This document shows positions 3,158 to 59,921 of a DNA stretch of 64,000 nt, piece by piece; within the stretch, counting starts at the first letter, position 1; each line of letters opens with the position of its first letter. The stretch is from an uncultured virus (IMG/VR IMGVR_UViG_3300046171_000179) (Duplodnaviria; Heunggongvirae; Uroviricota; Caudoviricetes; Crassvirales), in the IMG/VR virus record IMGVR_UViG_3300046171_000179. The stretch is one strand, 5' to 3'. The translations under genes and the position numbers were made by a program. Below the pieces are notes generated by a model that saw nothing but the letters and a program-made list of their open reading frames with translations, had not been told where the DNA came from and did no database searches.

Positions 3158-4735
3158 ATGGCACAATTCGGAGGCCCAAAGCTTGTCAAGGCTTTATACT
3201 TTGACAACGAGGCAAAAGAACAATTAGTAAAAGGTATAAATAAGATTGCTGATGCAGTTAGCTCTACATTAGGAGCTAGCGGTAGAACTGTAGTTATAGA
3301 AGACGATTTTGGTAACCCATATGTTACTAAAGACGGAGTAACTGTAGCTAATTCTATAATGCTTATGGATCCAGTAGAAAACTTGGGTGCATCAATGATG
3401 AAGCAAGCAGCACAACAGACAGCCAATATAGCCGGGGATGGTACCACCACCTCTATAGTACTGACTCAGGCTATTATTGACTGTTATAATAAATTAAAAG
3501 CAAAACAGTTTTCGTTCAGAGATATTAAAAGCGGAATTAATAAATTTAAAGATAACGTTGTAAAACTACTAGAATCCAAAGCGATTGATGTAGACGATAA
3601 AAAATTAGATGACGTATCTATAATTTCAGCCAACAATGACAAAAAGCTTGGCCTGCTTATCTCTGATGCTTTTAAAAAAGCTGGTGAAAATGGTATTGTT
3701 ACTATGGAAACCTCATCTACAAGTGATACTTATGTAGACGTTGTTGAAGGTACTAGATTAGGTTCTACTACTAAATCAGCACATTTTTTTACTAATAAAG
3801 AAAAAGAAATATCAGAACTTGATAATCCACTTATTTTTATTAGTGCTACAGATATACCTAATGTAAGAAAAATTCAGGACATCTTGGAGTATGCTATTAA
3901 GTCTAATCGCAGCATACTTCTTATTGCCCCACTAGAGTCGCAACCGCTTACAGCACTAGCGATGAACATGGTTAAAGGCAATATTAAGGTCAATGTAATA
4001 GATCCACCCAGCTTCGGACTTAAGCGTAAGGACATACTTGAAGATCTAGCATTGCTTGTCGGGGCTAAAGTTTTTGACGAAAGCCTCGGGGATTCGATTG
4101 ATTCGATAACCCCCGACATGTTAGGAGAAGCTGACAAAGCTATCTCAGATAAAGAAGGTACAGTACTTGTTATTTCAGAAAAATCAAAAGAAGTAACAGA
4201 GCGTATCGAATATTTAAAAACTGCTCTTGCTAAAGAAGATCATCATGTTTTAACTAAACATTTAAACGATCGATTAGCTTTATTATGTGGAGGTGTATCT
4301 ATTATATATGTAGGTGCTGACACAGAAGTAGAATTAAAAGAAAAGCAAGACAGAGTAGATGATGCAATACATGCGGTTAAGGCTGCACGTAAAGAAGGCA
4401 TACTACCAGGCGGAGGATCTGCATTAGCATATGCAGCTACTATGGACTGGGAGCATGAGCTTAATCAAGGCGAACTAGCTGGGCTAAATGTACTAAAAGA
4501 TGCATTAGTGGCACCATATACAAAAATATTAACGAACGCAGGACTTTCAGTACAAGAACATTCATTAAGTAAATGGGGTGAAGGTATTGATGTAACTTCT
4601 GGAACTAAAAAACAAATGATAAACGCAGGTATTATTGATCCGCTGCTTGTAACAAAGAGCGCACTTAATAATGCAATATCTGTAGCAACTACTATTTTAT
4701 CAACTGATTGTGTAATTTCAAATGTAAGAGAATAA
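3158..4735 (+). CDS. groEL: Chaperonin GroEL (Cpn60)
   Basis: TKDGVTVA, AGDGTTT, DDAIHAVKAA..EGILPGGG, GIIDP motifs; no GGM tail. Confidence 0.97.
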   Translation: MAQFGGPKLVKALYFDNEAKEQLVKGINKIADAVSSTLGASGRTVVIEDDFGNPYVTKDGVTVANSIMLMDPVENLGASMMKQAAQQTANIAGDGTTTSIVLTQAIIDCYNKLKAKQFSFRDIKSGINKFKDNVVKLLESKAIDVDDKKLDDVSIISANNDKKLGLLISDAFKKAGENGIVTMETSSTSDTYVDVVEGTRLGSTTKSAHFFTNKEKEISELDNPLIFISATDIPNVRKIQDILEYAIKSNRSILLIAPLESQPLTALAMNMVKGNIKVNVIDPPSFGLKRKDILEDLALLVGAKVFDESLGDSIDSITPDMLGEADKAISDKEGTVLVISEKSKEVTERIEYLKTALAKEDHHVLTKHLNDRLALLCGGVSIIYVGADTEVELKEKQDRVDDAIHAVKAARKEGILPGGGSALAYAATMDWEHELNQGELAGLNVLKDALVAPYTKILTNAGLSVQEHSLSKWGEGIDVTSGTKKQMINAGIIDPLLVTKSALNNAISVATTILSTDCVISNVRE

Positions 4736-4989
4736 TGGAAGCAATTGGTAATTACATAGTAATTGAAGAGATTCATGAAAACATCAAAAAGACTGATGGT
4801 GGTTTAGAACTCACAGAGAAGCTTATGGAGGACATTAGGTATCGGAAAGGTGTTATTATCTCTTCTGGTCCAGAGCTTCTTAAAAACGGCCAGAGGATAC
4901 TCTATGATCGCGTAGCAGGCTTTCCTGCAGAGTTTGATAATAAAATATACAAAGTTATCTCATTAAGAGATGTTGTAGCAATATTATAA
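4735..4989 (+). CDS. groES: Co-chaperonin GroES (Cpn10)
   Basis: Starts MEAIGNYIVI coupled to groEL stop; KTDGGLEL mobile loop; DVVAIL end. Confidence 0.9.
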   Translation: MEAIGNYIVIEEIHENIKKTDGGLELTEKLMEDIRYRKGVIISSGPELLKNGQRILYDRVAGFPAEFDNKIYKVISLRDVVAIL

Positions 4990-23454: not shown

Positions 23455-23880
23455 ATGAGTGAAAAAAAGAAACCCTTTAAAGATACAGGTGTCGGACGGT
23501 TTTTAATCGAAAAGGCACCAAGTATTCTAGGAATGGTCGGCGACGCAATATTGCCGGGAAATGTAATATCAGAACTAATTAGTGGTAACTCTCAGCTTTC
23601 AGAAAGCGATAAGCAAGTTGCACTAGAAAAGTTAAGAATAGAAAGAGCCGAAATTGATGGCACAACCAAAAGATGGGTAGCAGATGCTCGAAGCGGTAAC
23701 TGGCTTGCGTCCAACGTCCGACCATTGGTTCTTGTATTTTTAACAATATCATATGTTATAGGGTGGTACGCCGGCTATTCACTGGAATCAGTCACTTCAT
23801 TATTAACAATAGTCATCGGAGGCTATTTTGGATCTCGCGGCGTCGAGAAGGTATTTGGAAATAATAAACATAAACAATGA
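23455..23880 (+). CDS. Holin (3TM/GTA-type)
   Basis: RW.AD...WLASNVRPL...GGYFGSRGVEK. Confidence 0.8.
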   Translation: MSEKKKPFKDTGVGRFLIEKAPSILGMVGDAILPGNVISELISGNSQLSESDKQVALEKLRIERAEIDGTTKRWVADARSGNWLASNVRPLVLVFLTISYVIGWYAGYSLESVTSLLTIVIGGYFGSRGVEKVFGNNKHKQ

Positions 23881-24033: not shown

Positions 24034-24378
24034 ATGAAATATTTTAATGAATCTGAATTTAATAACTTTGACAAAATGGACCCTAAGCTTCTTGAGATGC
24101 TAGATAATCTTAGAGAAACATATGGATATCCAATTACATTAACGTCAACATATAGATCACCTCAGCATCCAATAGAGGCGCGTAAGTCTAGTCCAGGTGA
24201 GCACACTTATGGTGCCGCTGTAGATATAGCTTGTGTAGGAGGTGAGGCTACTTATAAATTAGTAAAAGCAGCTATTGAAGTAGGTTTTACTAGAATAGGT
24301 ATAAGTAGAAAAAACAATTTTGTTCATGTAGGTATAGGCTATGACGGTGCTCCACCTATGACAATATGGACATACTAA
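24034..24378 (+). CDS. Endolysin, peptidase M15A family
   Basis: STYR...EHTYGAAVDI...FVHV Zn-ligand pattern. Confidence 0.85.
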   Translation: MKYFNESEFNNFDKMDPKLLEMLDNLRETYGYPITLTSTYRSPQHPIEARKSSPGEHTYGAAVDIACVGGEATYKLVKAAIEVGFTRIGISRKNNFVHVGIGYDGAPPMTIWTY

Positions 24379-24388
24379 ATTAAATTAA

Positions 24389-24610
24389 ATGGCAAAATTA
24401 ATACGTAAGATCAGTATAGGTACTGACTACAAAAACGAAGCAATGCATTACTCTGTAGGCCAAGAAGTTTATGGAGGACATACTATTTCAGATATATTAG
24501 AAGAAGATGGTTCTTATAAAATATTTATAACTAAAAACAAAGAGGTATTACCTTGGAAACATTTTAATTCTAACATGGCTGTATCTGTTGAATATAACTT
24601 AGATTATTAA
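24389..24610 (+). CDS. Conserved hypothetical protein
   Basis: IRKISIG.DYK..AMHY.VGQ ORF preceding packaging module. Confidence 0.75.
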   Translation: MAKLIRKISIGTDYKNEAMHYSVGQEVYGGHTISDILEEDGSYKIFITKNKEVLPWKHFNSNMAVSVEYNLDY

Positions 24611-25212
24611 TGCAAGCACTTTTTGATTATATTATATCTACTGAAAATCGTTACAATAACGTAGTTAATGTTGATGACAAAAAATTAGTTGTTAATACAG
24701 AGATTACAGAGAGAGATTACATGTTCGTTAACAGAATAGGTAAAGTTATTAGTGTTCCAGCTGGTATAAAAACAGAAGTAAGTGTTGGAGATGAAATAAT
24801 AGTTCATCATAATGTTTTTAGAAGATGGTTAAACCAACAACAAGAAGAGCGTAACTCAGCTAGTTATCTTGATGAAGATAAATATACTGTTGCGGCGGAT
24901 CAAGTTTTTGCTTATAAAAAAGATAAAAAATGGATTGCACTTCCTGGATATTGCTTTGTTGCGCCTATAAAAATGAAAGACAAATGGGCTCTTGATACAG
25001 ATGAAAATTTAAAAGGGGAACTAGTATATACTAATAGCCAATTAAGTTCATTAGGAGCGTCTATAGGAGACGTGGTGGGGTTTACACCTAACTCTGAGTA
25101 TGAGTTTAATATTGATGGTCAAAAACTTTATAGAATTTTATCAAATCATATAACTATTAATTATGGACCGAAGAAAAAGAATAATACAAGCAGCGGAAAA
25201 AGCATTAGTTGA
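24610..25212 (+). CDS. Tandem GroES-like domain protein
   Basis: Two G.V...VGD.(I/V) GroES-fold-like repeats. Confidence 0.6.
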   Translation: MQALFDYIISTENRYNNVVNVDDKKLVVNTEITERDYMFVNRIGKVISVPAGIKTEVSVGDEIIVHHNVFRRWLNQQQEERNSASYLDEDKYTVAADQVFAYKKDKKWIALPGYCFVAPIKMKDKWALDTDENLKGELVYTNSQLSSLGASIGDVVGFTPNSEYEFNIDGQKLYRILSNHITINYGPKKKNNTSSGKSIS

Positions 25213-25405
25213 ACTTGAAAAAGTTATTAAACAAAATATTGATTTATCTGAACTAGATCCTGAAAAAGCTAAAACAGCAGCTCAAGCCAAATGGGTTGCA
25301 ATAGAAGATTCATTAAAGATTATAGAAAAAATTGAAGAGTTATCTGATAAAAAATCTAATACAGAATCTAAAACTTTTTTAGGTGTTGAAAATAGAATCA
25401 AATAA
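25163..25405 (+). CDS. Hypothetical protein, possible small terminase
   Basis: Helical 80-aa ORF coupled to terL. Confidence 0.5.
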   Translation: MDRRKRIIQAAEKALVELEKVIKQNIDLSELDPEKAKTAAQAKWVAIEDSLKIIEKIEELSDKKSNTESKTFLGVENRIK

Positions 25406-27636
25406 TGTACAAACAAACGCTTTATAAAATACACAATGCTCATTTATCTGATAAAAAAATTAAACATCTTAATAAACATAAGAAGTTTGAATATGGATAT
25501 AATGAAGAATTAGACTGTGTTGTAATAAGTAAAGATGGTACAATAGGTGATATATATGAAATACAAGGTCTTAAGGTAGCAATACCTAAAACTCCCAACA
25601 AAATAGATGGAGAAGACTTAAAACAAACAGATCAATATTTTAGAATAAAAAATAAACCAGAATCTTTAAATAAAATAAAAAGCATATATGATTTTCAATC
25701 TTACCCAGAGGATATTAAAGAAAAATACTACCAATATATTGATAGTGAGTTTAATTATCGTAATGATGGGTATTGGTTCATGTGCAACGGTGCCCCGAAC
25801 TACATTACAGGATCGCACTATGTCTATTTATCCTGGACAAAGATCGACGTGGGAGCACCAGATTTTAGGCAGGCAAACAGGATATTTTACTACTTCTGGG
25901 AGGCTTGCAAGGCAGATAAGAGATCTTATGGAATGTGCTACCTTAAGAACAGACGGTCTGGCTTTAGCTTCATGGCATCCTCAGAGACTGTTAACTTGGC
26001 AACAACTTCCAAGGACTCTAGATTTGGGGTCTTATCTAAAACTGGAGCAGATGCGAAGAAGATGTTTACAGACAAGATTGTACCCATATCAATCAACTAT
26101 CCATTTTTTTTCAAACCAATACAGGATGGGATGGAACGACCAAAGACGGAGTTATCCTATAAGATACCGTCAAGAAGACTTACCAGAAACGCCATCAAAG
26201 AGACCTATAGTCAGGAGGAATTTGGGAAGGGGCTCGATACAACAATCGATTGGAAGAACACGGGAGACAACTCGTATGATGGAGAGAAATTACAACTCCT
26301 CGTCCATGATGAATCCGGTAAATGGGAGAGGCCGGACAATATACTCAACAACTGGAGAGTCACGAAAACGTGCCTCAGGCTCGGTGCCAAAGTAGTAGGT
26401 AAATGTATGATGGGATCTACATCTAATGCTTTAAATAAAGGTGGAGATAACTTTAAAAAATTATTTTATAATTCAGATGTCACAAATAGAAACCGCAATG
26501 GCCAGACTACAAGTGGACTATATTCTTTGTTCATACCTATGGAGTGGGGATACGAAGGGTTTATTGACAAATACGGATATCCTGTCTTCGATACACCATC
26601 AGACCCGATTGAAGGAATTGATGGGGAAAAAATATTTACGGGAGTCATTGATCATTGGGAAAATGAAGTAGAAGGATTAAAAAAAGATAGTGATGCTTTA
26701 AATGAATATTACAGACAATTTCCAAGATCTGAAAAGCATGCTTTTAGAGATGAAACAGTTAATTCATTATTTAATTTAACTAAAATATATGAGCAAATAG
26801 ATTTTAACGAAGAAATGGCTATTAAAGGTTATGTTGTTCGTGGAACTTTTGCTTGGCAAAATGGTATAAAAGATACTAAAGTTATATGGGTTCCTAGTAA
26901 AAATGGTAGATTTAAAATATCATGGATACCGCCAGATAACATACAAAATAATATAATCATAAAAAATGGTATTAAATATCCTGGTAATGATGGCTTCGGA
27001 GCCTTCGGGTGTGATAGTTATGACATCAGCGGTACTGTTGGGGGTGGTGGGTCTAATGGTGCTCTTCATGGATTAACTACTTTTTCTATGGTGAATGATG
27101 TGCCTAATACTAAGTTTTTCTTAGAATACATAGCACGACCACAAACAGCAGAAATATTTTTTGAAGAAGTATTAATGGCATTAGTGTTTTACGGTATGCC
27201 AATACTTGCTGAAAATAATAAACCAAGATTATTATATCATTTAAAAAGAAGAGGTTATAGAGGTTTTTCTATGAACAGACCTGATAAACTTTTAGGTAAT
27301 TTATCTAAAACAGAAATAGAATTAGGAGGTATACCAAATACATCTGAAGATATAAAACAAGCACATGCGGCTGCTATTGAATCTTATATAGAAGATTATG
27401 TAGGACGTAAAGAAGAAAATCATGGTAATATGTATTTTCAAAAAACATTAGAAGACTGGGCGCGTTTTGATATATCAAGAAGAACATCTCATGATGCATC
27501 CATAAGTAGTGGACTTGCAATTATGGCGTGTAGAAAACATATGTATAGGCCTAATATGGAAAGAACAATAAAAAAAATAGATTTTCGTTTTGCAAAATAT
27601 AAAAACGACGGATCAATGAGTAAGATAATACAATAA
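25405..27636 (+). CDS. terL: Terminase large subunit
   Basis: KNRRSGFS Walker A, LLVHDESGK Walker B, FGCDSYD nuclease. Confidence 0.93.
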   Translation: MYKQTLYKIHNAHLSDKKIKHLNKHKKFEYGYNEELDCVVISKDGTIGDIYEIQGLKVAIPKTPNKIDGEDLKQTDQYFRIKNKPESLNKIKSIYDFQSYPEDIKEKYYQYIDSEFNYRNDGYWFMCNGAPNYITGSHYVYLSWTKIDVGAPDFRQANRIFYYFWEACKADKRSYGMCYLKNRRSGFSFMASSETVNLATTSKDSRFGVLSKTGADAKKMFTDKIVPISINYPFFFKPIQDGMERPKTELSYKIPSRRLTRNAIKETYSQEEFGKGLDTTIDWKNTGDNSYDGEKLQLLVHDESGKWERPDNILNNWRVTKTCLRLGAKVVGKCMMGSTSNALNKGGDNFKKLFYNSDVTNRNRNGQTTSGLYSLFIPMEWGYEGFIDKYGYPVFDTPSDPIEGIDGEKIFTGVIDHWENEVEGLKKDSDALNEYYRQFPRSEKHAFRDETVNSLFNLTKIYEQIDFNEEMAIKGYVVRGTFAWQNGIKDTKVIWVPSKNGRFKISWIPPDNIQNNIIIKNGIKYPGNDGFGAFGCDSYDISGTVGGGGSNGALHGLTTFSMVNDVPNTKFFLEYIARPQTAEIFFEEVLMALVFYGMPILAENNKPRLLYHLKRRGYRGFSMNRPDKLLGNLSKTEIELGGIPNTSEDIKQAHAAAIESYIEDYVGRKEENHGNMYFQKTLEDWARFDISRRTSHDASISSGLAIMACRKHMYRPNMERTIKKIDFRFAKYKNDGSMSKIIQ
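25688..26395 (+). CDS. Overprinted +1-frame ORF, lipoprotein-like (235 aa)
   Basis: Long stop-free frame; KK + hydrophobic + IGSC; host codons locally G/C-ending. Confidence 0.6.
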   Translation: MIFNLTQRILKKNTTNILIVSLIIVMMGIGSCATVPRTTLQDRTMSIYPGQRSTWEHQILGRQTGYFTTSGRLARQIRDLMECATLRTDGLALASWHPQRLLTWQQLPRTLDLGSYLKLEQMRRRCLQTRLYPYQSTIHFFSNQYRMGWNDQRRSYPIRYRQEDLPETPSKRPIVRRNLGRGSIQQSIGRTRETTRMMERNYNSSSMMNPVNGRGRTIYSTTGESRKRASGSVPK

Positions 27637-27638
27637 CT

Positions 27639-30070
27639 ATGGCAATAACAACAGGACAACTTCCTACACAATTTCCGAGTCAAGCTGTCTCAGATGAAGA
27701 AAAAATGTCTTCTGAATATGGTTTATCGGTTGGAAGGGCTATTGAACAAGAATGGTTCAATAAAGATAATAACCCCGGTATGTATTATCAAACCAATGAA
27801 GAGTTTCACAGGTTAAGATTATATGCTAGAGGTGAGCAGTCTGTTAAAAAATATAAAGATGAATTTGCTATAAACGGTGATTTGTCTTATTTAAATTTAG
27901 ACTGGAAACCTGTACCTATTATTCCTAAATTTGTAGATATCGTTGTAAATGGTATGCAAGATCGACTTTTTGATATAAAAGCTTTTGCGCAAGATCCTAT
28001 ATCAACAGGAAAAAGAACAGATTTTGTAAATAAAGTTCAAAGAGATATTAATGCTCAATCTTTATTAAAACAAATAGAAGCTGAAGTAGGTGTTGATGCT
28101 AGAAATATCAAACAAGATGATATGCCTACAAATACAGAAGAACTTGAATTATACATGCAATTAGCATATAAACAAGGTATAGAAATAGCTGAAGAACAAG
28201 CTATTAATAATGTTTTTCTAACAAATAAATATCCAGAATTAAAAAAACGCGTTGATTATGATTTAGCTGTATTAGGCATAGGAGCTGTAAAAAACACGTT
28301 TAACAATACAGATGGTATAAAACTAGACTATGTAGATCCCGCAAATTTAGTTTGGTCTTATACTGAAGATCCTAATTTTGAAGACTGTTATTATTTTGGA
28401 GAAATTAAAAGAATAAATCTTAACGAACTTAAAAAACAATTTCCAAATTTACCAAATGAAGAAATAGCAGAATTTGTTAAAAAAGGTTCTAATTGGGTTG
28501 ATTATAATAATAACTGGTTTAATAATAATTTTAATAGCGAAATAGATAATAATAATACACTTACTGTATTATATTTTAATTGGAAAACTTGGGAAAACAA
28601 CGTTTATAAAATTAAAGAAACATCTACTGGTGCTGATAAAGCTATATTAAAAAATGATAAATTTAACCCACCACAAGATAAAAGAACAAGATTTGAAAGA
28701 GTAGCACAAGCTAGAGAGGTTGTTTATGAAGGAGCTTATATATTAGGTAGTAATATACTACTTAAGTGGCAAAAAGCAAAAAACATGATAAGGCCTAGTT
28801 CAAATACTAATAAAGTATTAATGAACTATACTGTATCAGCTCCAAGAATGTATAAAGGTAATATAAATTCTTTAGTTTCTAAAATGACGCCTTATGCTGA
28901 TTTAATTCAGTTAACACATTTAAAACTACAACAAACAATACAAAGAATGGTTCCATCAGGTGTTTTTATAGATGCTGATGGTATTGCAGAAGTTGATTTA
29001 GGTAATGGAACTAATTATAATGCTCAAGAAGCATTAAACATGTATTTTTCTACAGGTTCTATTATTGGTAGATCTTTAACTGTAGAAGGTGATCCTAATC
29101 CAGGTAAAGTGCCAATACAAGAATTACCTGGAACTCAAGGTAATCAAATACAAATATTAGTAGCAGCATATAATCAGTATCTTCAAATGATAAGAGATAT
29201 TACTGGTTTAAATGAAGCTAGAGATGGTTCTGATCCTGATCCAAATTCACTAGTTGGAGTACAGAAATTAGCAGCAGCAAACAGTAATACAGCTACAAGA
29301 CATATATTATCATCAAGTATGTATATAACATTGGCCTTAGCTGAGGCTATATGTTTAAGATTTAAAGATGTATTAGAGTTTCATCCTACAAAAGAAGCTT
29401 TTATTGATTCACTTAGGTCAGATTTTCAGTAGGATCTTTAGAAGAAATGAAAAACTTACATTTGCATGATTTTGGTATATTTTTAGAATTAGAACCAGAT
29501 GAAGAAGAAAAATCTTTATTAGAAGCTAATATACAGGCTGCATTATCAAGAGATAGTATTAATTTAGAAGATGCTATTGACATACGTGAGATAAAAAATC
29601 TTAAACTTGCTAATCAAGTTCTTAAGATAAGACGTATTAAAAAACAACAGATAGATCAACAAATGGCCCAAGCGGCTAGCGTTGCTCAAGCTGAAGCACA
29701 AGGAGCTGCTCAAATACAAATAGAAGAAGCAAAAGCTCAAGCAGAACAAGTTAAAACAGAATCTAAAATTCAATATAGACAAGCTGATATTGAGTTTGAA
29801 ATTAAAAAATTAGAAGTAGAAGCCCAAACAAAAAGAGAGCTTATGCAGTTTGAATATGATTTAAATGTTAAATTAAAAGCTCTAGAATTAGAAGCTCAAA
29901 AAGAATTAGTAGAAAAACAAAATGAAACAGCTGTTGAAGTTGCTAATTTAAAAACATCTGCTAAAAGTTTATCAGGTCCACCTCAAACAGGTAAACCAGC
30001 TAAATCATTTGAATCTAAAGGAAATGATGTTTTAGGTGGTATTGATTTAAGTAGATTTTCACCTAAATAA
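27639..30070 (+). CDS. Portal protein, split by apparent frameshift near 29420
   Basis: Follows terL; LDWKPVPIIPKFVDIVVNG; removing two extra C restores SLGRFSVGSLEEMKNL. Confidence 0.85.
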
Positions 30071-51198: not shown

Positions 51199-52941
51199 TT
51201 ATCCATCACAGGATATACAGTTTGGATCCATAGCTTTAGCAGCTATATCACCTCTTAGAACTGATTCAGTTCTCATATAATAAAGAGTTTTTATACCCCT
51301 TTTCCAAGCTTCAAAATGGACTTTATTAACCCATCTTGGCTCAGCCTCCGCAGGAAATGCTAGATTTAATGATACTGATTGATCAATATAATCTTGCCGT
51401 ATTCCAGCTTGTCCAACTAACTCCAGTTGGTTTATCTCTTTAAACGTTTTATAAACGTTCTTGACAGACTCGCCTTCTTCTTGAGTTAGTCGTCCGAGGT
51501 GGTCGTAAAACCATCCATCGAGTTCTTTAATTCCTTGAATGGATCCACCATCTTCCAGAATTTTATCCCAAGTTTCTTTGGTATCAATACCAACTTTCTT
51601 AAGTACTTTCCTAAGTTCATTGTTTTTTCTTATAAATGTTCCTTTAGCTGATTGTTCTGTAAAAACATTAGCTGCCCAAGGCTCTATGCCTGGCGATATG
51701 TTACCACTTAATTTACTATTAGAAACTGTAGGCGCTACAGATCTTAAATGTGTATTTCTAAAACCTGTACCTACACACCACAAAGGCTCACCATATATCT
51801 CAGCAAGCTTACGTGATGCTCTTTCTGTTTCAATTTTAATCTTACTGAATATTTCTCTAGTTTTAAACTGAGCTAAAAGCCCTTCAAAAGCTATTCCCTT
51901 CTTCTGTAACAGCGTGTGCCAGCCTAATACACCTAAACCTATGGCTCGGCCTTTTTCCGCTGATCTAATAGCGTTTTCAAAGCCTTTCATATTCTTAGCT
52001 TTTTGTATAAACTCCTCCATTACACCATCTAAAAACCATGTAGCATCATAGATAAGATTAGTATTTTTCCACTCATCGTATTTAGCAAGATTTAAAGATG
52101 ACAAGCAACAAACAAAACTGTGGCTTTCATCTGTATGTAGTGTTATTTCACTACATATATTAGTCATATGTACCTTTAAGCTATTCGACTTGTAAGCAGG
52201 TGGATTAGCCTTGTTCGTATTACCTTTAAAGAGGATATACGGCTCCCCAGTAGCTTTACGTTTTTGGAGTAGCTTGGACCATCTTTGTCGTGCTTCTTGA
52301 TCTCCGCTCTCGAGCTTTCGCATAAACTTATCGCCAACGACAGCACACTGATGTAGGTTAAGAGATTGCCTGTTGACGTCACCTTTAGGTTCTCTAATTT
52401 CCAACCATTCATCAAAATCAGAGTGTTCGATATTGAGATTAACGGATGCAGCTCCTCTACGTACTGATCCTTGATTGGTCGCGAGTATAGTTGAGTCATA
52501 GATTTTGCAAAAAGGGACAACTCCATCTGATGTTCCATTACCTGTAATTTTAGATCCGGCAGGGCGTATCATATTGATGCCTATACCTACTCCGCCGCCG
52601 TGTTTAGCAAGTAGCATCATTTCTAAGTTCTTGTTACCTATATCATTTATGCTATCAGCAACATCAATACCAAAACAAGAGATAGGTAAACCTCTGTCTG
52701 TACCTGTATTAGATAACACAGGTGATGCTAAACATAGCCAGCCTTTCCAGATGTAGTCAAAAAACTGTTCTGCTAGCTCTGGTTTATATAACCTTCTAGC
52801 AACAGCATTTGAAACACGCGTGTAAGCTTCTCTAGGTGATTCACCCATCAAAAGATATCCACCGATAATAGTTTTCTTATAAACATCAGTATCACCCCAG
52901 TTAGGATAATCTACACCTTTTTTCCAATCGTTATTCCACAT
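51199..52941 (-). CDS. nrdA: Ribonucleotide reductase class Ia alpha (short, no ATP cone)
   Basis: PISCF, TNICSE, VAPT.S, KTLYY, C-terminal CISC. Confidence 0.95.
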   Translation of the reverse strand: MWNNDWKKGVDYPNWGDTDVYKKTIIGGYLLMGESPREAYTRVSNAVARRLYKPELAEQFFDYIWKGWLCLASPVLSNTGTDRGLPISCFGIDVADSINDIGNKNLEMMLLAKHGGGVGIGINMIRPAGSKITGNGTSDGVVPFCKIYDSTILATNQGSVRRGAASVNLNIEHSDFDEWLEIREPKGDVNRQSLNLHQCAVVGDKFMRKLESGDQEARQRWSKLLQKRKATGEPYILFKGNTNKANPPAYKSNSLKVHMTNICSEITLHTDESHSFVCCLSSLNLAKYDEWKNTNLIYDATWFLDGVMEEFIQKAKNMKGFENAIRSAEKGRAIGLGVLGWHTLLQKKGIAFEGLLAQFKTREIFSKIKIETERASRKLAEIYGEPLWCVGTGFRNTHLRSVAPTVSNSKLSGNISPGIEPWAANVFTEQSAKGTFIRKNNELRKVLKKVGIDTKETWDKILEDGGSIQGIKELDGWFYDHLGRLTQEEGESVKNVYKTFKEINQLELVGQAGIRQDYIDQSVSLNLAFPAEAEPRWVNKVHFEAWKRGIKTLYYMRTESVLRGDIAAKAMDPNCISCDG

Positions 52942-58211: not shown

Positions 58212-59921
58212 CTATCCTTCCCAAGGCATTGAATCTAACTCTTGTTGATACGGTATGTAGTCGCCTGAGTCTTTATTCCATTTAAAGTGTGCCTCTGCTT
58301 GGTTTTCTCCAAGGTTTTGAAACTTAACTTTAAGTACTTTAACCTTAACTGTTTTATTAGTGTAATTCCTATGAACAAGAAGCCCGTGATAACTAGCATC
58401 ATACCACTCACCACCTCCTTTAATAGAATACATTGTCGGTTCATCCATTGTTCCATCATCTTTCTTATACATTTTAGTTGGGTGAGCTACAACAATAACA
58501 AGTACATCATGCTTTTTTGCAAAAGCTTCTATACGTGTTAAGTATTCCATCGTTGCATCAGGTATACTCATTGCACTAGCTCCGTTCATTTTTACTTTAT
58601 TATATGGATCTATAACTAAACACTTTATACCTTTACGTTTAACTAATTCAGCACCTTTGTTTAGCACAGAATCAAGATCATATCTTTCATTTTCTATAAA
58701 GTAAAAGTTATCATCTACTAGTTCTGTAACTTGATTCCACTTATCTGTACCTATATCTTCTTTCTTAGGCATCCAACCTCCTATCTTACGTATTAATTTA
58801 TGAGTATGTAAGAATGTAGGTTTGTTCTCTGGTGAAGCAAATGCTGTTTTCCAGCCGTACTTCATTTGGTAACCCACCACCATTCGATCAACAAAATCAG
58901 ACTTCCCACTGCTAGGAACGCCTGTAACGGTGATGAATTGCCCTGTGTAAGTAGAGAATATGCTATCAAAGTTATCAAGACCGACTTGATAACCAGGTTT
59001 AAAACCTTCATGAATAAATTCTTGTAGTTCATCATTTACATCTTTTAAGGTTACTACATTTTCAAGAGGAACAGGACTAGCTGTATCAACAAGACGCTTG
59101 AGCATAGTATTGCCGTAGCGTAACATATATTCATTAGCATCTTTACAGTCGTTAAAGTCAACTGTATAACATACCTCTGCTCCGAACCGTCTAATGAGTT
59201 CTTGCTGTAGATTTTGTCCTGCTTCATCTTTGTCAACTGCAATGATAATTTTGGATTTGTCATCGAAATATTCAATGCAATTATCAAGGTAATCAAGGTT
59301 AAGGCGGTTAAGAGTAGCTCCGTTTGGTACACTGACCACACTGTCGATCTTAGAATCCACAAAAGATAAAGCATCCATTTCGCCTTCCACAATAACAACA
59401 TAATCACGGCCAATAGTACTATCAATATTATAGAATACTTTTTCGGCACCTTTAACAAGTTTAAAGTTTTTTCTACCATCTCTATATTTTATATTTATAA
59501 GTTCGTTATTAATAAAATAATTAAATTGAATAGTGTTCTCAACTTTAGAGGTCTGTGGCATCCACTCAGAACCTTCAGATATTCTCATCTTAATAAGTGT
59601 TCGTTGTGAAATGCCTCTGTCCTCAAACCATTTAACAGCTCTATCGCTTATAAGTACATTATTATGCCATTCAGGTTTTGTATATACTTTATTTACATCT
59701 CCTTTACGTTGAAAGGTATGTAACTGAAATACCTCATCACAATTCATACAAGTACCAAGACCACGTTCCCAATCATACATAGCACATTTTGCTTTACGAT
59801 TCTCAGGTTTTCTATCAGCAGAGCAAAGAGGACAAGTGCCCTCTTTTTTCCCTACTTCAAGATCATACTGATTGAACTGGTCAATAGTAAATCCGTTGAT
59901 CTCTGTATTGTTAATTGTCAT
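58212..59921 (-). CDS. Primase-helicase (T7 gp4/Twinkle-like)
   Basis: CPLC/CMNC Zn site, IVEGEMD and D.DEAG TOPRIM, GVPSSGKS, VIDP, VVAHP. Confidence 0.93.
   Translation of the reverse strand: MTINNTEINGFTIDQFNQYDLEVGKKEGTCPLCSADRKPENRKAKCAMYDWERGLGTCMNCDEVFQLHTFQRKGDVNKVYTKPEWHNNVLISDRAVKWFEDRGISQRTLIKMRISEGSEWMPQTSKVENTIQFNYFINNELINIKYRDGRKNFKLVKGAEKVFYNIDSTIGRDYVVIVEGEMDALSFVDSKIDSVVSVPNGATLNRLNLDYLDNCIEYFDDKSKIIIAVDKDEAGQNLQQELIRRFGAEVCYTVDFNDCKDANEYMLRYGNTMLKRLVDTASPVPLENVVTLKDVNDELQEFIHEGFKPGYQVGLDNFDSIFSTYTGQFITVTGVPSSGKSDFVDRMVVGYQMKYGWKTAFASPENKPTFLHTHKLIRKIGGWMPKKEDIGTDKWNQVTELVDDNFYFIENERYDLDSVLNKGAELVKRKGIKCLVIDPYNKVKMNGASAMSIPDATMEYLTRIEAFAKKHDVLVIVVAHPTKMYKKDDGTMDEPTMYSIKGGGEWYDASYHGLLVHRNYTNKTVKVKVLKVKFQNLGENQAEAHFKWNKDSGDYIPYQQELDSMPWEG

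Follow-up and report, generated by a model that had tools for sequence, protein, structure and literature searches.

A probable membrane-targeted gene overprinted on the terminase large subunit gene of an uncultured tailed phage

We describe an open reading frame (ORF) embedded in terL, the terminase large subunit gene, in a 64,000-nucleotide stretch of DNA from an uncultured virus of the Crassvirales (IMG/VR record IMGVR_UViG_3300046171_000179). We refer to the whole of this stretch as the window. The terL gene (25405..27636, + strand) encodes 743 amino acids (aa) and matches PHROG 6681 at E 3e-166. The embedded ORF (25688..26395, + strand) lies in the +1 frame of terL, starts with an ATG, and encodes 235 aa plus stop. 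From the comparison of sequences, we put at about 0.85 the probability that it is a real, translated gene for a membrane-targeted protein, overprinted on terL. In many relatives, selection has both recoded this frame and preserved it from stops, and the product is therefore most likely a real new membrane-anchored protein.

The last +1-frame stop before the ORF (25676..25678, + strand) lies four codons upstream of the ATG. On the same strand, the ATG and an n-region, MIFNLTQRILKKNTTN, with R8, K11 and K12 (25688..25735) are followed by a hydrophobic segment, ILIVSLIIVMMGIGS, plus Cys32 (25736..25783, with the Cys codon at 25781-25783), which would form a transmembrane (TM) helix or a lipoprotein-type signal. 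The remaining ~200 aa (25784..26392) are an Arg/Thr/Ser/Gln-rich tail predicted to be disordered. A first-pass annotation of the window, made by a model from the letters alone, had reported a +1 frame stop-free for 708 nucleotides (nt), a 235-aa ORF at these coordinates and a Cys codon at 25781, and we reproduce the coordinates, the frame, the length and the position of the Cys.

The open +1 frame in the window

There are 42 +1-frame stops in terL, 10 of them within the 272 nt preceding the ORF. Between 25676 and 26393 there are none, which amounts to 238 open codons; +1 stops return at 26393, 26396, 26408 and 26432, and afterwards occur roughly once per 40 nt. The +2 frame and all three antisense frames retain stops inside the ORF stretch. 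Amongst the five alternative frames of each of the 78 ORFs in the window (20888 codons), 238 codons is the longest open stretch, and the next two have 144 and 130.

The open frame coincides with a recoded stretch of terL (25745..26400, + strand), the patch, in which the G+C content at third codon positions (GC3) is 0.40-0.60 versus 0.05-0.25 in the flanks. Measured per 40 codons, GC3 starts at 0.10-0.17 ahead of the ORF, climbs to 0.40-0.60 over codons 100-300, and then falls back to 0.05-0.25 for the most part; overall, it goes from about 0.17 to 0.49 over the ORF stretch. The maximum GC3 over 100 codons in the 78 ORFs of the window is that of the ORF stretch (0.53; median 0.14, 99th percentile 0.47). 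Along the hydrophobic segment the terL wobble bases are still A or T, and the increase starts near there. The first-pass annotation had noticed that terL codons shift in this region to AAG/ATC/GAC/TAC/TTC types and then revert, which agrees with the GC3 profile and with the codons themselves: Lys is encoded by AAG in 12/22 cases in the patch versus 6/47 outside, Asn by AAC in 11/14 versus 7/37, and Glu by GAG in 9/13 versus 2/33. All the NTA codons of the window terL that fall within the ORF precede a pyrimidine.

When synonymous terL codons are shuffled within the patch, keeping the protein and the local codon usage, the +1 frame contains 7.75 stops on average, and none of 20000 shuffles is stop-free. 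That region was itself defined by its stops; hence a second null, in which synonymous codons are shuffled within fixed 120-codon blocks and the longest open stretch anywhere in terL is scored. Under this null, the longest stretch has a mean of 68 codons, a 99th percentile of 125 and a maximum of 166, and 0 of 2000 shuffles reach the observed 238. The embedded ORF is far longer than the codon usage of its host gene permits, as one looks for in an overprinted gene, and the codon shuffle that the first-pass annotation had proposed as a check never yields such an ORF.

Carriers, non-carriers and selection

A scan of IMG/VR identifies 599 relatives among 600 candidate stretches, from which we take the best 80 and align them by codons. 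The alignment has 79 rows, the window (row Q) and 78 of the 80 loci, after dropping two (L003 and L017) that cover too little of the patch. The +1 frame is open for 133-241 codons in 41 of the 79 rows (23 at 203-241 and 18 at 133-188), and for 30-112 codons in the other 38. The 41 carriers span 66-100% terL identity, so the frame is open in diverged relatives. We call clade A the window's own clade, and group B a second group of carriers. In a fixed region, terL codons 112-223 of row Q, the local codon usage of the carriers, as defined by their open frame, predicts 81.2 stops and they contain 0, and the 38 non-carriers have 179 where 210.4 are expected. In the same region, NTA codons before a purine number 0/121 in the carriers versus 151/307 in the non-carriers. 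Scattered +1 stops in the homologues, no synonymous constraint, and shuffles that yield such ORFs formed the pattern named in the first-pass annotation as contrary to a second gene; with the frame open in 41 of 79 rows, we find otherwise.

In the 41 carriers, GC3 is elevated solely within each carrier's own ORF. Three loci (L013-L015) with 138-codon ORFs have GC3 of 0.42-0.46 in the ORF and 0.19-0.22 in the remaining patch, and another (L016) with a 188-codon ORF has 0.47 and 0.24. In the ORF-less relatives, the patch is at background GC3, about 0.2. The outgroup MW202828.1 has GC3 ~0.42 along the whole of terL, and yet it keeps 44 +1 stops and its longest open stretch is 46 codons; composition alone, therefore, does not open the frame. 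These values bear on the possibility that the patch is a mosaic, a stretch of terL recombined from a GC-richer relative, with a +1 frame open by composition and no second protein. The GC3 jump is indeed sharp-edged, and higher GC reduces stops in any frame. Against a mosaic, the raised GC3 ends at each lineage's own ORF stop (133, 138, 160, 188 or about 240 codons), shuffles with the local codon usage of the patch still expect their 7.75 stops, a relative with GC3 ~0.42 throughout has 44 +1 stops, stops persist in the patch in the +2 and antisense frames, and purifying selection acts on the ORF sequence within clade A (see below). We regard a mosaic patch as highly improbable and already largely refuted.

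Of the 19 clade-A rows, 15 have a +1 stop just upstream of the ORF, and 18 share the alignment column of the ATG. A programmed +1 frameshift, which would fuse the N-terminal ~95 residues of terL to the +1 tail without independent initiation, has in its favour that the ORF is in the +1 frame relative to terL and that three public predicted proteins (P0028, P0046 and P0047) switch between the terL and ORF frames. They do so at differing places and in both directions, as assembly indels would, and these chimeras are probably indel errors of metagenome assembly. A fused tail also sits badly with the +1 stop a few codons upstream of a fixed ATG in clade A, with several group B ORFs that start with M right after a stop (L035, L058, L031, L075), and with a hydrophobic helix at the ORF start, as expected of a signal. 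We find a frameshift product very unlikely.

The overprinted-gene reading further predicts selection on the second product, and here the geometry of the two frames matters. Position 2 of the ORF codons is the terL wobble base, and ORF positions 1 and 3 are terL positions 2 and 1; much of the peptide similarity is therefore forced. As a null for identity, we shuffle synonymous terL codons within the patch, pair by pair. ORF identity is above this null in 8 of 8 clade-A pairs, as in Q-L007 (0.53 versus 0.39 +/- 0.03, P<0.001) and Q-L019 (0.52 versus 0.37). A downstream control stretch for the same pairs has no such excess (0.44 versus 0.45, and 0.51 versus 0.50). In clade A, normalised wobble conservation at 4-fold sites is 0.18-0.42 across the ORF versus about 0-0.1 in the 3' half of terL, and in the ORF-less sequences it is flat, at 0.10-0.16 over codons 100-260. 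Synonymous constraint on terL alignments, another check that the first-pass annotation had called for, is then present in the window's clade; excess constraint or purifying selection on the product is found in clade A and is weak between A and B.

Several properties are seen to be under selection. One is the absence of stops in the +1 frame. Another is the run of T at terL wobble positions that produces the hydrophobic helix. A third is the use of C or G at the downstream terL wobbles, which turns would-be Ile, Val, Phe, Lys and Asn into Thr, Ala, Ser and Arg, so that the tail stays polar. Within the window's clade, the amino-acid sequence itself is selected. In the tail (Q codons 150-285), hydrophobic residues are 29-30% in the carriers versus 43% in a counterfactual translation of the ORF-less sequences, and there are 17 Arg in group A and 10 in group B versus 6 in that same translation. 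The net charge of the tail is equal in carriers and counterfactual (+11 to +15); the basic charge is therefore an unselected by-product of the frame, and it is the polarity that is selected.

The same data speak to a nucleic-acid element (an RNA structure, a packaging site or a regulatory site) that would raise G+C over ~650 nt and leave the open frame incidental. Nearby, the stretch at ~26425-26650 is strongly constrained at synonymous sites in all groups, ORF carriers or not, and therefore elements of some kind do exist inside this terL. For the patch, an element of this kind is hardly credible: stop avoidance is confined to one frame, the NTA codons before purines vanish in the carriers (0/121) and not in the non-carriers (151/307), and the helix-making T-rich wobble run has moved ~16 codons between A and B with the property retained.

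For the history of the overprinted gene, we use a terL tree of 66 rows with MW202828.1 as outgroup on a long branch, so that the root is only approximate. A 16-row clade (support 100) includes the window, and every member carries the ORF. In the remaining 50 rows, it is the early branches that bear carriers, with 151-234 open codons. The simplest reading of the tree would be that the ORF arose once, near the base, and was then truncated at the 3' end several times and also lost several times; groups A and B may instead have acquired it separately. The gene would have been present near the base of a group of uncultured marine, probably flavobacterial podophages. Several lineages would later have lost its 3' part or all of it, which makes it an accessory gene.

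Some observations weigh against a translated and conserved second protein. Contigs from RNA libraries (four runs, two studies) match the stretch at 99-100% identity, and such contigs cannot show transcription, strand, ends or frame. The division into carriers and non-carriers in the fixed-region test is itself defined by openness, and given that, what counts is that the open lengths are bimodal, how many stops would be expected, and the association with GC3. Codon positions 1 and 2 of terL force much of the peptide similarity, conserved Cys residues and basic charge included. Between A and B, the identity of the tails is barely above the level forced by terL (P 0.04-0.47), and only 2 wobble columns are both shared and selected in the two groups. 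The gene is dispensable: a 25-row clade (support 98) and a few small groups are without it. Finally, we dropped the per-sequence shuffle P-values on the longest open stretch, which are biased by the post hoc choice of region; in them, 99-codon stretches of ORF-less sequences also scored P ~0.

Six loci (L038, L045, L047, L049, L060 and L080) with 99 codons and one (L033) with 107 have an open +1 stretch at window terL codons ~193-292. The stretches match the 3' part of the ORF without raised GC3, and their owners are basal members of the ORF-less clade; they may be a decaying remnant of the ORF. Among the deposited relatives examined no cultured phage carries the ORF, and three cultured phages, ElemoB, phi38:1 and phi13:2, are without it.

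The product and its possible role

The predicted product has an isoelectric point of 11.25, with 32 R, 6 K, 6 D and 8 E. Its hydrophobic segment reaches a Kyte-Doolittle maximum of 2.66 over 15 residues in the window, and in all 41 carriers the 15-residue maximum is between 1.75 and 3.13, versus an average of 1.30 in the 38 non-carriers, which have stops and N, Q or H at the carrier Leu columns (for example, GL*ITVNQHI*QVHIIC). An AlphaFold2 (AF2) model from 37 ORF sequences has a mean predicted local distance difference test (pLDDT) score of 39.7, with helices only at residues 2-30 (pLDDT 63-75), 78-91 and 113-128, while residues 30-120 and 128-235 score pLDDT <50. Over its C-terminal 40 residues the product is polar and basic (...NGRGRTIYSTTGESRKRASGSVPK). 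The segment reads ...ILIVSLIIVMMGIGS-C in clade A; in group B it sits ~16 residues further on (...LLILLALITC-TCSG), with the start likewise shifted downstream (MKNLK...). To judge from the sequences, the hydrophobic property is kept between the two groups, and its position is not. The N-terminal hydrophobic, membrane-targeting segment proposed in the first-pass annotation is borne out by the AF2 helix and by the Kyte-Doolittle peaks, and for the tail that it described as R/S/N/T-rich, the composition is R/S/T-rich.

Searches with the product against Pfam return only DUF7657 at E 0.046, below the cut-off, and against PHROGs and NCBIfam no match; in the ESM Atlas, the best score is 0.85 with 111-117 shared features, which is the chance level. 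The product has no neighbour by family, by fold or by protein language model. Sequence and profile searches collect 53 clusters at 90% identity and 137 at 50%, and all those examined are the same embedded ORF. The product is a new protein family, in a new host-gene context for overprinting.

Ribosomes would probably initiate internally, at the ATG at 25688, on the same late mRNA as for terL. The 30 nt before this ATG are 57% A and 83% A+T. An A-rich upstream region suits the Shine-Dalgarno-independent initiation described for Bacteroidota. Between 24900 and 25800 we find no instance of the motif TAnnTTTG, and hence no sign of a promoter dedicated to the ORF. None of the RNA-library contigs in X4 and X6 covers 25300-25656, and we draw no inference from it. 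The basic residues R8, K11 and K12 before the helix suggest a cytoplasmic N-terminus and a periplasmic tail. The helix (residues about 17-31) would act as a signal anchor or, less certainly, the protein would be anchored by a lipid at Cys32 after cleavage by signal peptidase II.

The lipid anchor deserves a closer look, as the first-pass annotation had called the product a lipoprotein. A charged n-region (R8, K11, K12) and an h-region lie directly before the Cys (ILIVSLIIVMMGIGS-C), and this part of the claim stands. In PMC6139136, the lipobox consensus is [LVI][ASTVI][GAS]C, and a deviant lipobox, AWAC, is functional; the I-G-S-C of the window fails this consensus at -2, where Gly is outside the allowed set, and by that definition neither the window nor group B has a strict lipobox. 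A Trp codon of terL dictates the Gly at -2, whereas the Ser at -1 needs the rarer Phe codon TTC in terL; of 37 sequences, at least 90% keep G30, at least 90% keep S31 and at least 90% keep C32. All of clade A has [IT]-G-S-C, and group B has L-I-T-C, with T at -1. A looser, PROSITE-type lipobox pattern would presumably accept clade A. With the consensus missed at -2, G-S-C nonetheless conserved, and T at -1 in group B, the lipoprotein reading is left for clade A only, where we consider lipid modification possible and somewhat doubtful.

The first-pass annotation had also likened the product to a spanin and noted that the adjacent holin-endolysin cassette has no recognisable spanin. The second observation holds. 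Among 51 ORFs scanned against PHROGs, the only lysis genes matched are of holin and endolysin type, and in the window there is no lipobox ORF within 3 kb on either side of the locus. In 9 clade-A, 15 group-B and 25 ORF-less loci, the same 3 kb on either side yield no lipobox ORF, save for 5 antisense or low-complexity hits. The upstream gene order varies between groups, and nothing in it tracks the loss of the ORF. With a cassette of holin and endolysin only and no lipobox ORF within 3 kb, the envelope step of lysis is thus unaccounted for, also in the ORF-less relatives. The likeness to a spanin does not hold. As described in PMC6139136, o-spanins are defined by their link to an i-spanin gene, and u-spanins carry a signal for lipoylation at the N-terminus and an added C-terminal TM domain. 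The host gene of our ORF is terL, which is no i-spanin gene to be embedded in, overlapping or beside; there is no i-spanin-like gene among the terL neighbours; and in place of a C-terminal TM domain there is a polar and basic C-terminus. Spanin membership therefore fails.

A lipoprotein processed by signal peptidase II and serving as the missing spanin of this phage appears to us quite unlikely. It would be consistent with the n-region, h-region and Cys, with the Ser at -1 kept through the rarer TTC and the high conservation of G30, S31 and C32, and with the lack of any other candidate in the two scans; according to PMC6139136, no spanin was detected in 91 of 677 phages of Gram-negative hosts. 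Besides the Gly at -2, the T at -1 in group B and the lack of both the C-terminal TM domain of a u-spanin and the partner or host gene of an o-spanin, it has to face a Cys at residue 32, which is late for a lipoprotein signal, and a gene lost in many relatives without a replacing lipoprotein within 3 kb.

Our best guess for the function of the embedded gene is an envelope-directed late accessory protein. If the gene is real, it might be a lysis helper acting on the outer membrane or the periplasm, a role that we propose only tentatively and think rather improbable; superinfection exclusion or receptor masking seems unlikely, and other roles take up the rest. The late expression and the exclusion role offered by the first-pass annotation are suggestions drawn from position only. 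Any role in lysis at all we regard as doubtful.

Two phage genes invite comparison. The lysis protein E of phiX174 is overprinted on the essential gene D in the +1 frame, and it has an N-terminal TM helix and a basic tail dictated by the host frame. Our ORF is likewise in the +1 frame of an essential gene and likewise combines an N-terminal helix with a basic, frame-dictated tail. Unlike E, which is a sole lysis function, it belongs to a double-stranded DNA (dsDNA) podophage with a holin and an endolysin, its product is more than twice as long, and there is no homology. The other is Rz1 of lambda, which lies in Rz (PMC6139136): the two ORFs have in common that they are wholly inside another phage gene, in the +1 frame, that an N-terminal signal-like segment is followed by a Cys and a largely unstructured mature part, and that gene callers miss them. 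They differ in that the host gene here is terL and not an i-spanin gene, that the ORF is outside the lysis cassette, that its product has 235 aa versus the 40 aa of mature lambda Rz1, that its lipobox is off consensus at -2, and that it has no known partner and no sequence similarity. The architecture resembles that of Rz1 in Rz and the product shape that of phiX174 E in D, and our ORF is a member of neither family.

More generally, going by the abstracts of PMC8227390, PMC6195259 and bioRxiv 10.1101/229690, the accessory proteins that viruses create de novo by overprinting share with our ORF that they are young, taxonomically restricted and set in an older gene, that their products are predicted disordered and skewed in composition, and that the host gene is recoded. 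Our ORF differs from them in that the older gene encodes a conserved enzyme, and the phage is a tailed dsDNA phage; moreover, the sequenced relatives provide a natural series of full-length, 3'-shortened and lost versions. Full-text literature searches return, in the titles and abstracts of the papers, no account of a gene embedded in a terminase gene, which is not proof of absence. To our knowledge, there are few documented cases of long out-of-frame genes in the conserved enzyme genes of tailed dsDNA phages, as such genes are thrown out by annotation pipelines. With the ORF series and a terL wobble composition that rises and relaxes in step with it, the cost and the mechanics of overprinting an essential motor protein become measurable. 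The ORF also adds a widespread and unannotated protein family (the 137 clusters at 50% identity) to the marine flavobacterial phages, and points to a place where envelope or lysis functions that seem to be missing from these phages might be sought.

Genome context and other candidate overlaps

The window is the whole or most of the genome of an uncultured tailed phage, with a G+C content of 33.7%. As a dsDNA podophage, it has a genome of some 60 kb or more, and it encodes a holin and an endolysin itself. A long + strand module, from 1 to about 50.9 kb, has GroEL/GroES, tail fibres, lysis genes, terL, portal and virion proteins, and the - strand has a replication module with ribonucleotide reductase (RNR), thymidylate synthase, primase/helicase, exonuclease and Erf. 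The holin (23455-23877, + strand, PHROG 3427) and the M15-type endolysin (24034-24375, + strand, PHROG 894) sit 1.3-2.2 kb upstream of the embedded ORF. The neighbours of terL are a GroES-like gene, an 80-aa ORF, and the portal gene (27639-29429, PHROG 6547) directly downstream. The window encodes two GroES-like proteins (4708-4986 and 24610-25209), the second of them between the lysis cassette and terL, a position kept in all relatives with enough flank, and a GroEL homologue at 3158-4732 (PHROG 5725, E 9e-128).

The terL protein has no Pfam, NCBIfam or relevant PDB sequence match. The first-pass annotation had placed the ORF in the ATPase region of terL, a label left unconfirmed by a PDB search and by an AF2 model of terL residues 1-402 with 30 relatives, in which pLDDT is <50 at residues 174-347. 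The label comes from KNRRSGFS (terL residue 181) and LLVHDE (residue 298), which we take to be Walker-like motifs. The terL of virus record G001 is identical to that of the window, and the closest deposited relatives are MW202828.1 (61.7% aa identity), Flavobacterium elemo phages (44.6%), and Cellulophaga and Tenacibaculum phages (30-37%). Given these nearest terL proteins, the host probably belongs to the marine Flavobacteriaceae.

A second embedded +1 ORF occurs at 59054-59479 (- strand, 141 aa, ATG start), inside the primase/helicase gene (58212-59921). It has about four hydrophobic segments, GC3 is only slightly raised, and it has no PHROG match. Its 144 open codons compare to a block-shuffle maximum of 117 (0/2000), and all 32 of the full-length IMG/VR relatives (74-91% helicase identity) have 141-147 open codons in this frame. 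It is probably another real overprinted membrane-protein gene. The two ORFs together would fit a wider picture, which we consider unlikely as a whole, in which AT-rich flavobacterial phages would use the +1 frames of essential enzyme genes as a nursery for envelope proteins: the terL-embedded product would be a de novo, periplasm-facing, Arg-rich, membrane-tethered factor that performs the outer-membrane step of lysis without a spanin, and the helicase-embedded multi-TM ORF would be a second product of the kind. In this picture, a T-rich wobble automatically encodes hydrophobic helices in the +1 frame.

Two more stretches are candidates for overlaps. The constrained part of terL at ~26425-26650 (codons 340-410) has the strongest 4-fold wobble conservation, 0.53-0.55 in carriers and 0.33-0.43 in ORF-less sequences, and a +1 ORF at 26441-26671 falls in it. 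Codons 360-400 are +1 stop-free in all three groups, with a mean of at most 0.1 stop per 20-codon bin (16, 16 and 28 sequences), and the stretch avoids GTA at V358 (3/59) and ATA at I386 (2/57). The constraint would be due either to a short second overlapping ORF or to a DNA or RNA element. The RNR large subunit gene (51199-52938, - strand) has a 130-codon open +1 stretch from ~52568 downwards, with a block-shuffle P = 0.0025.

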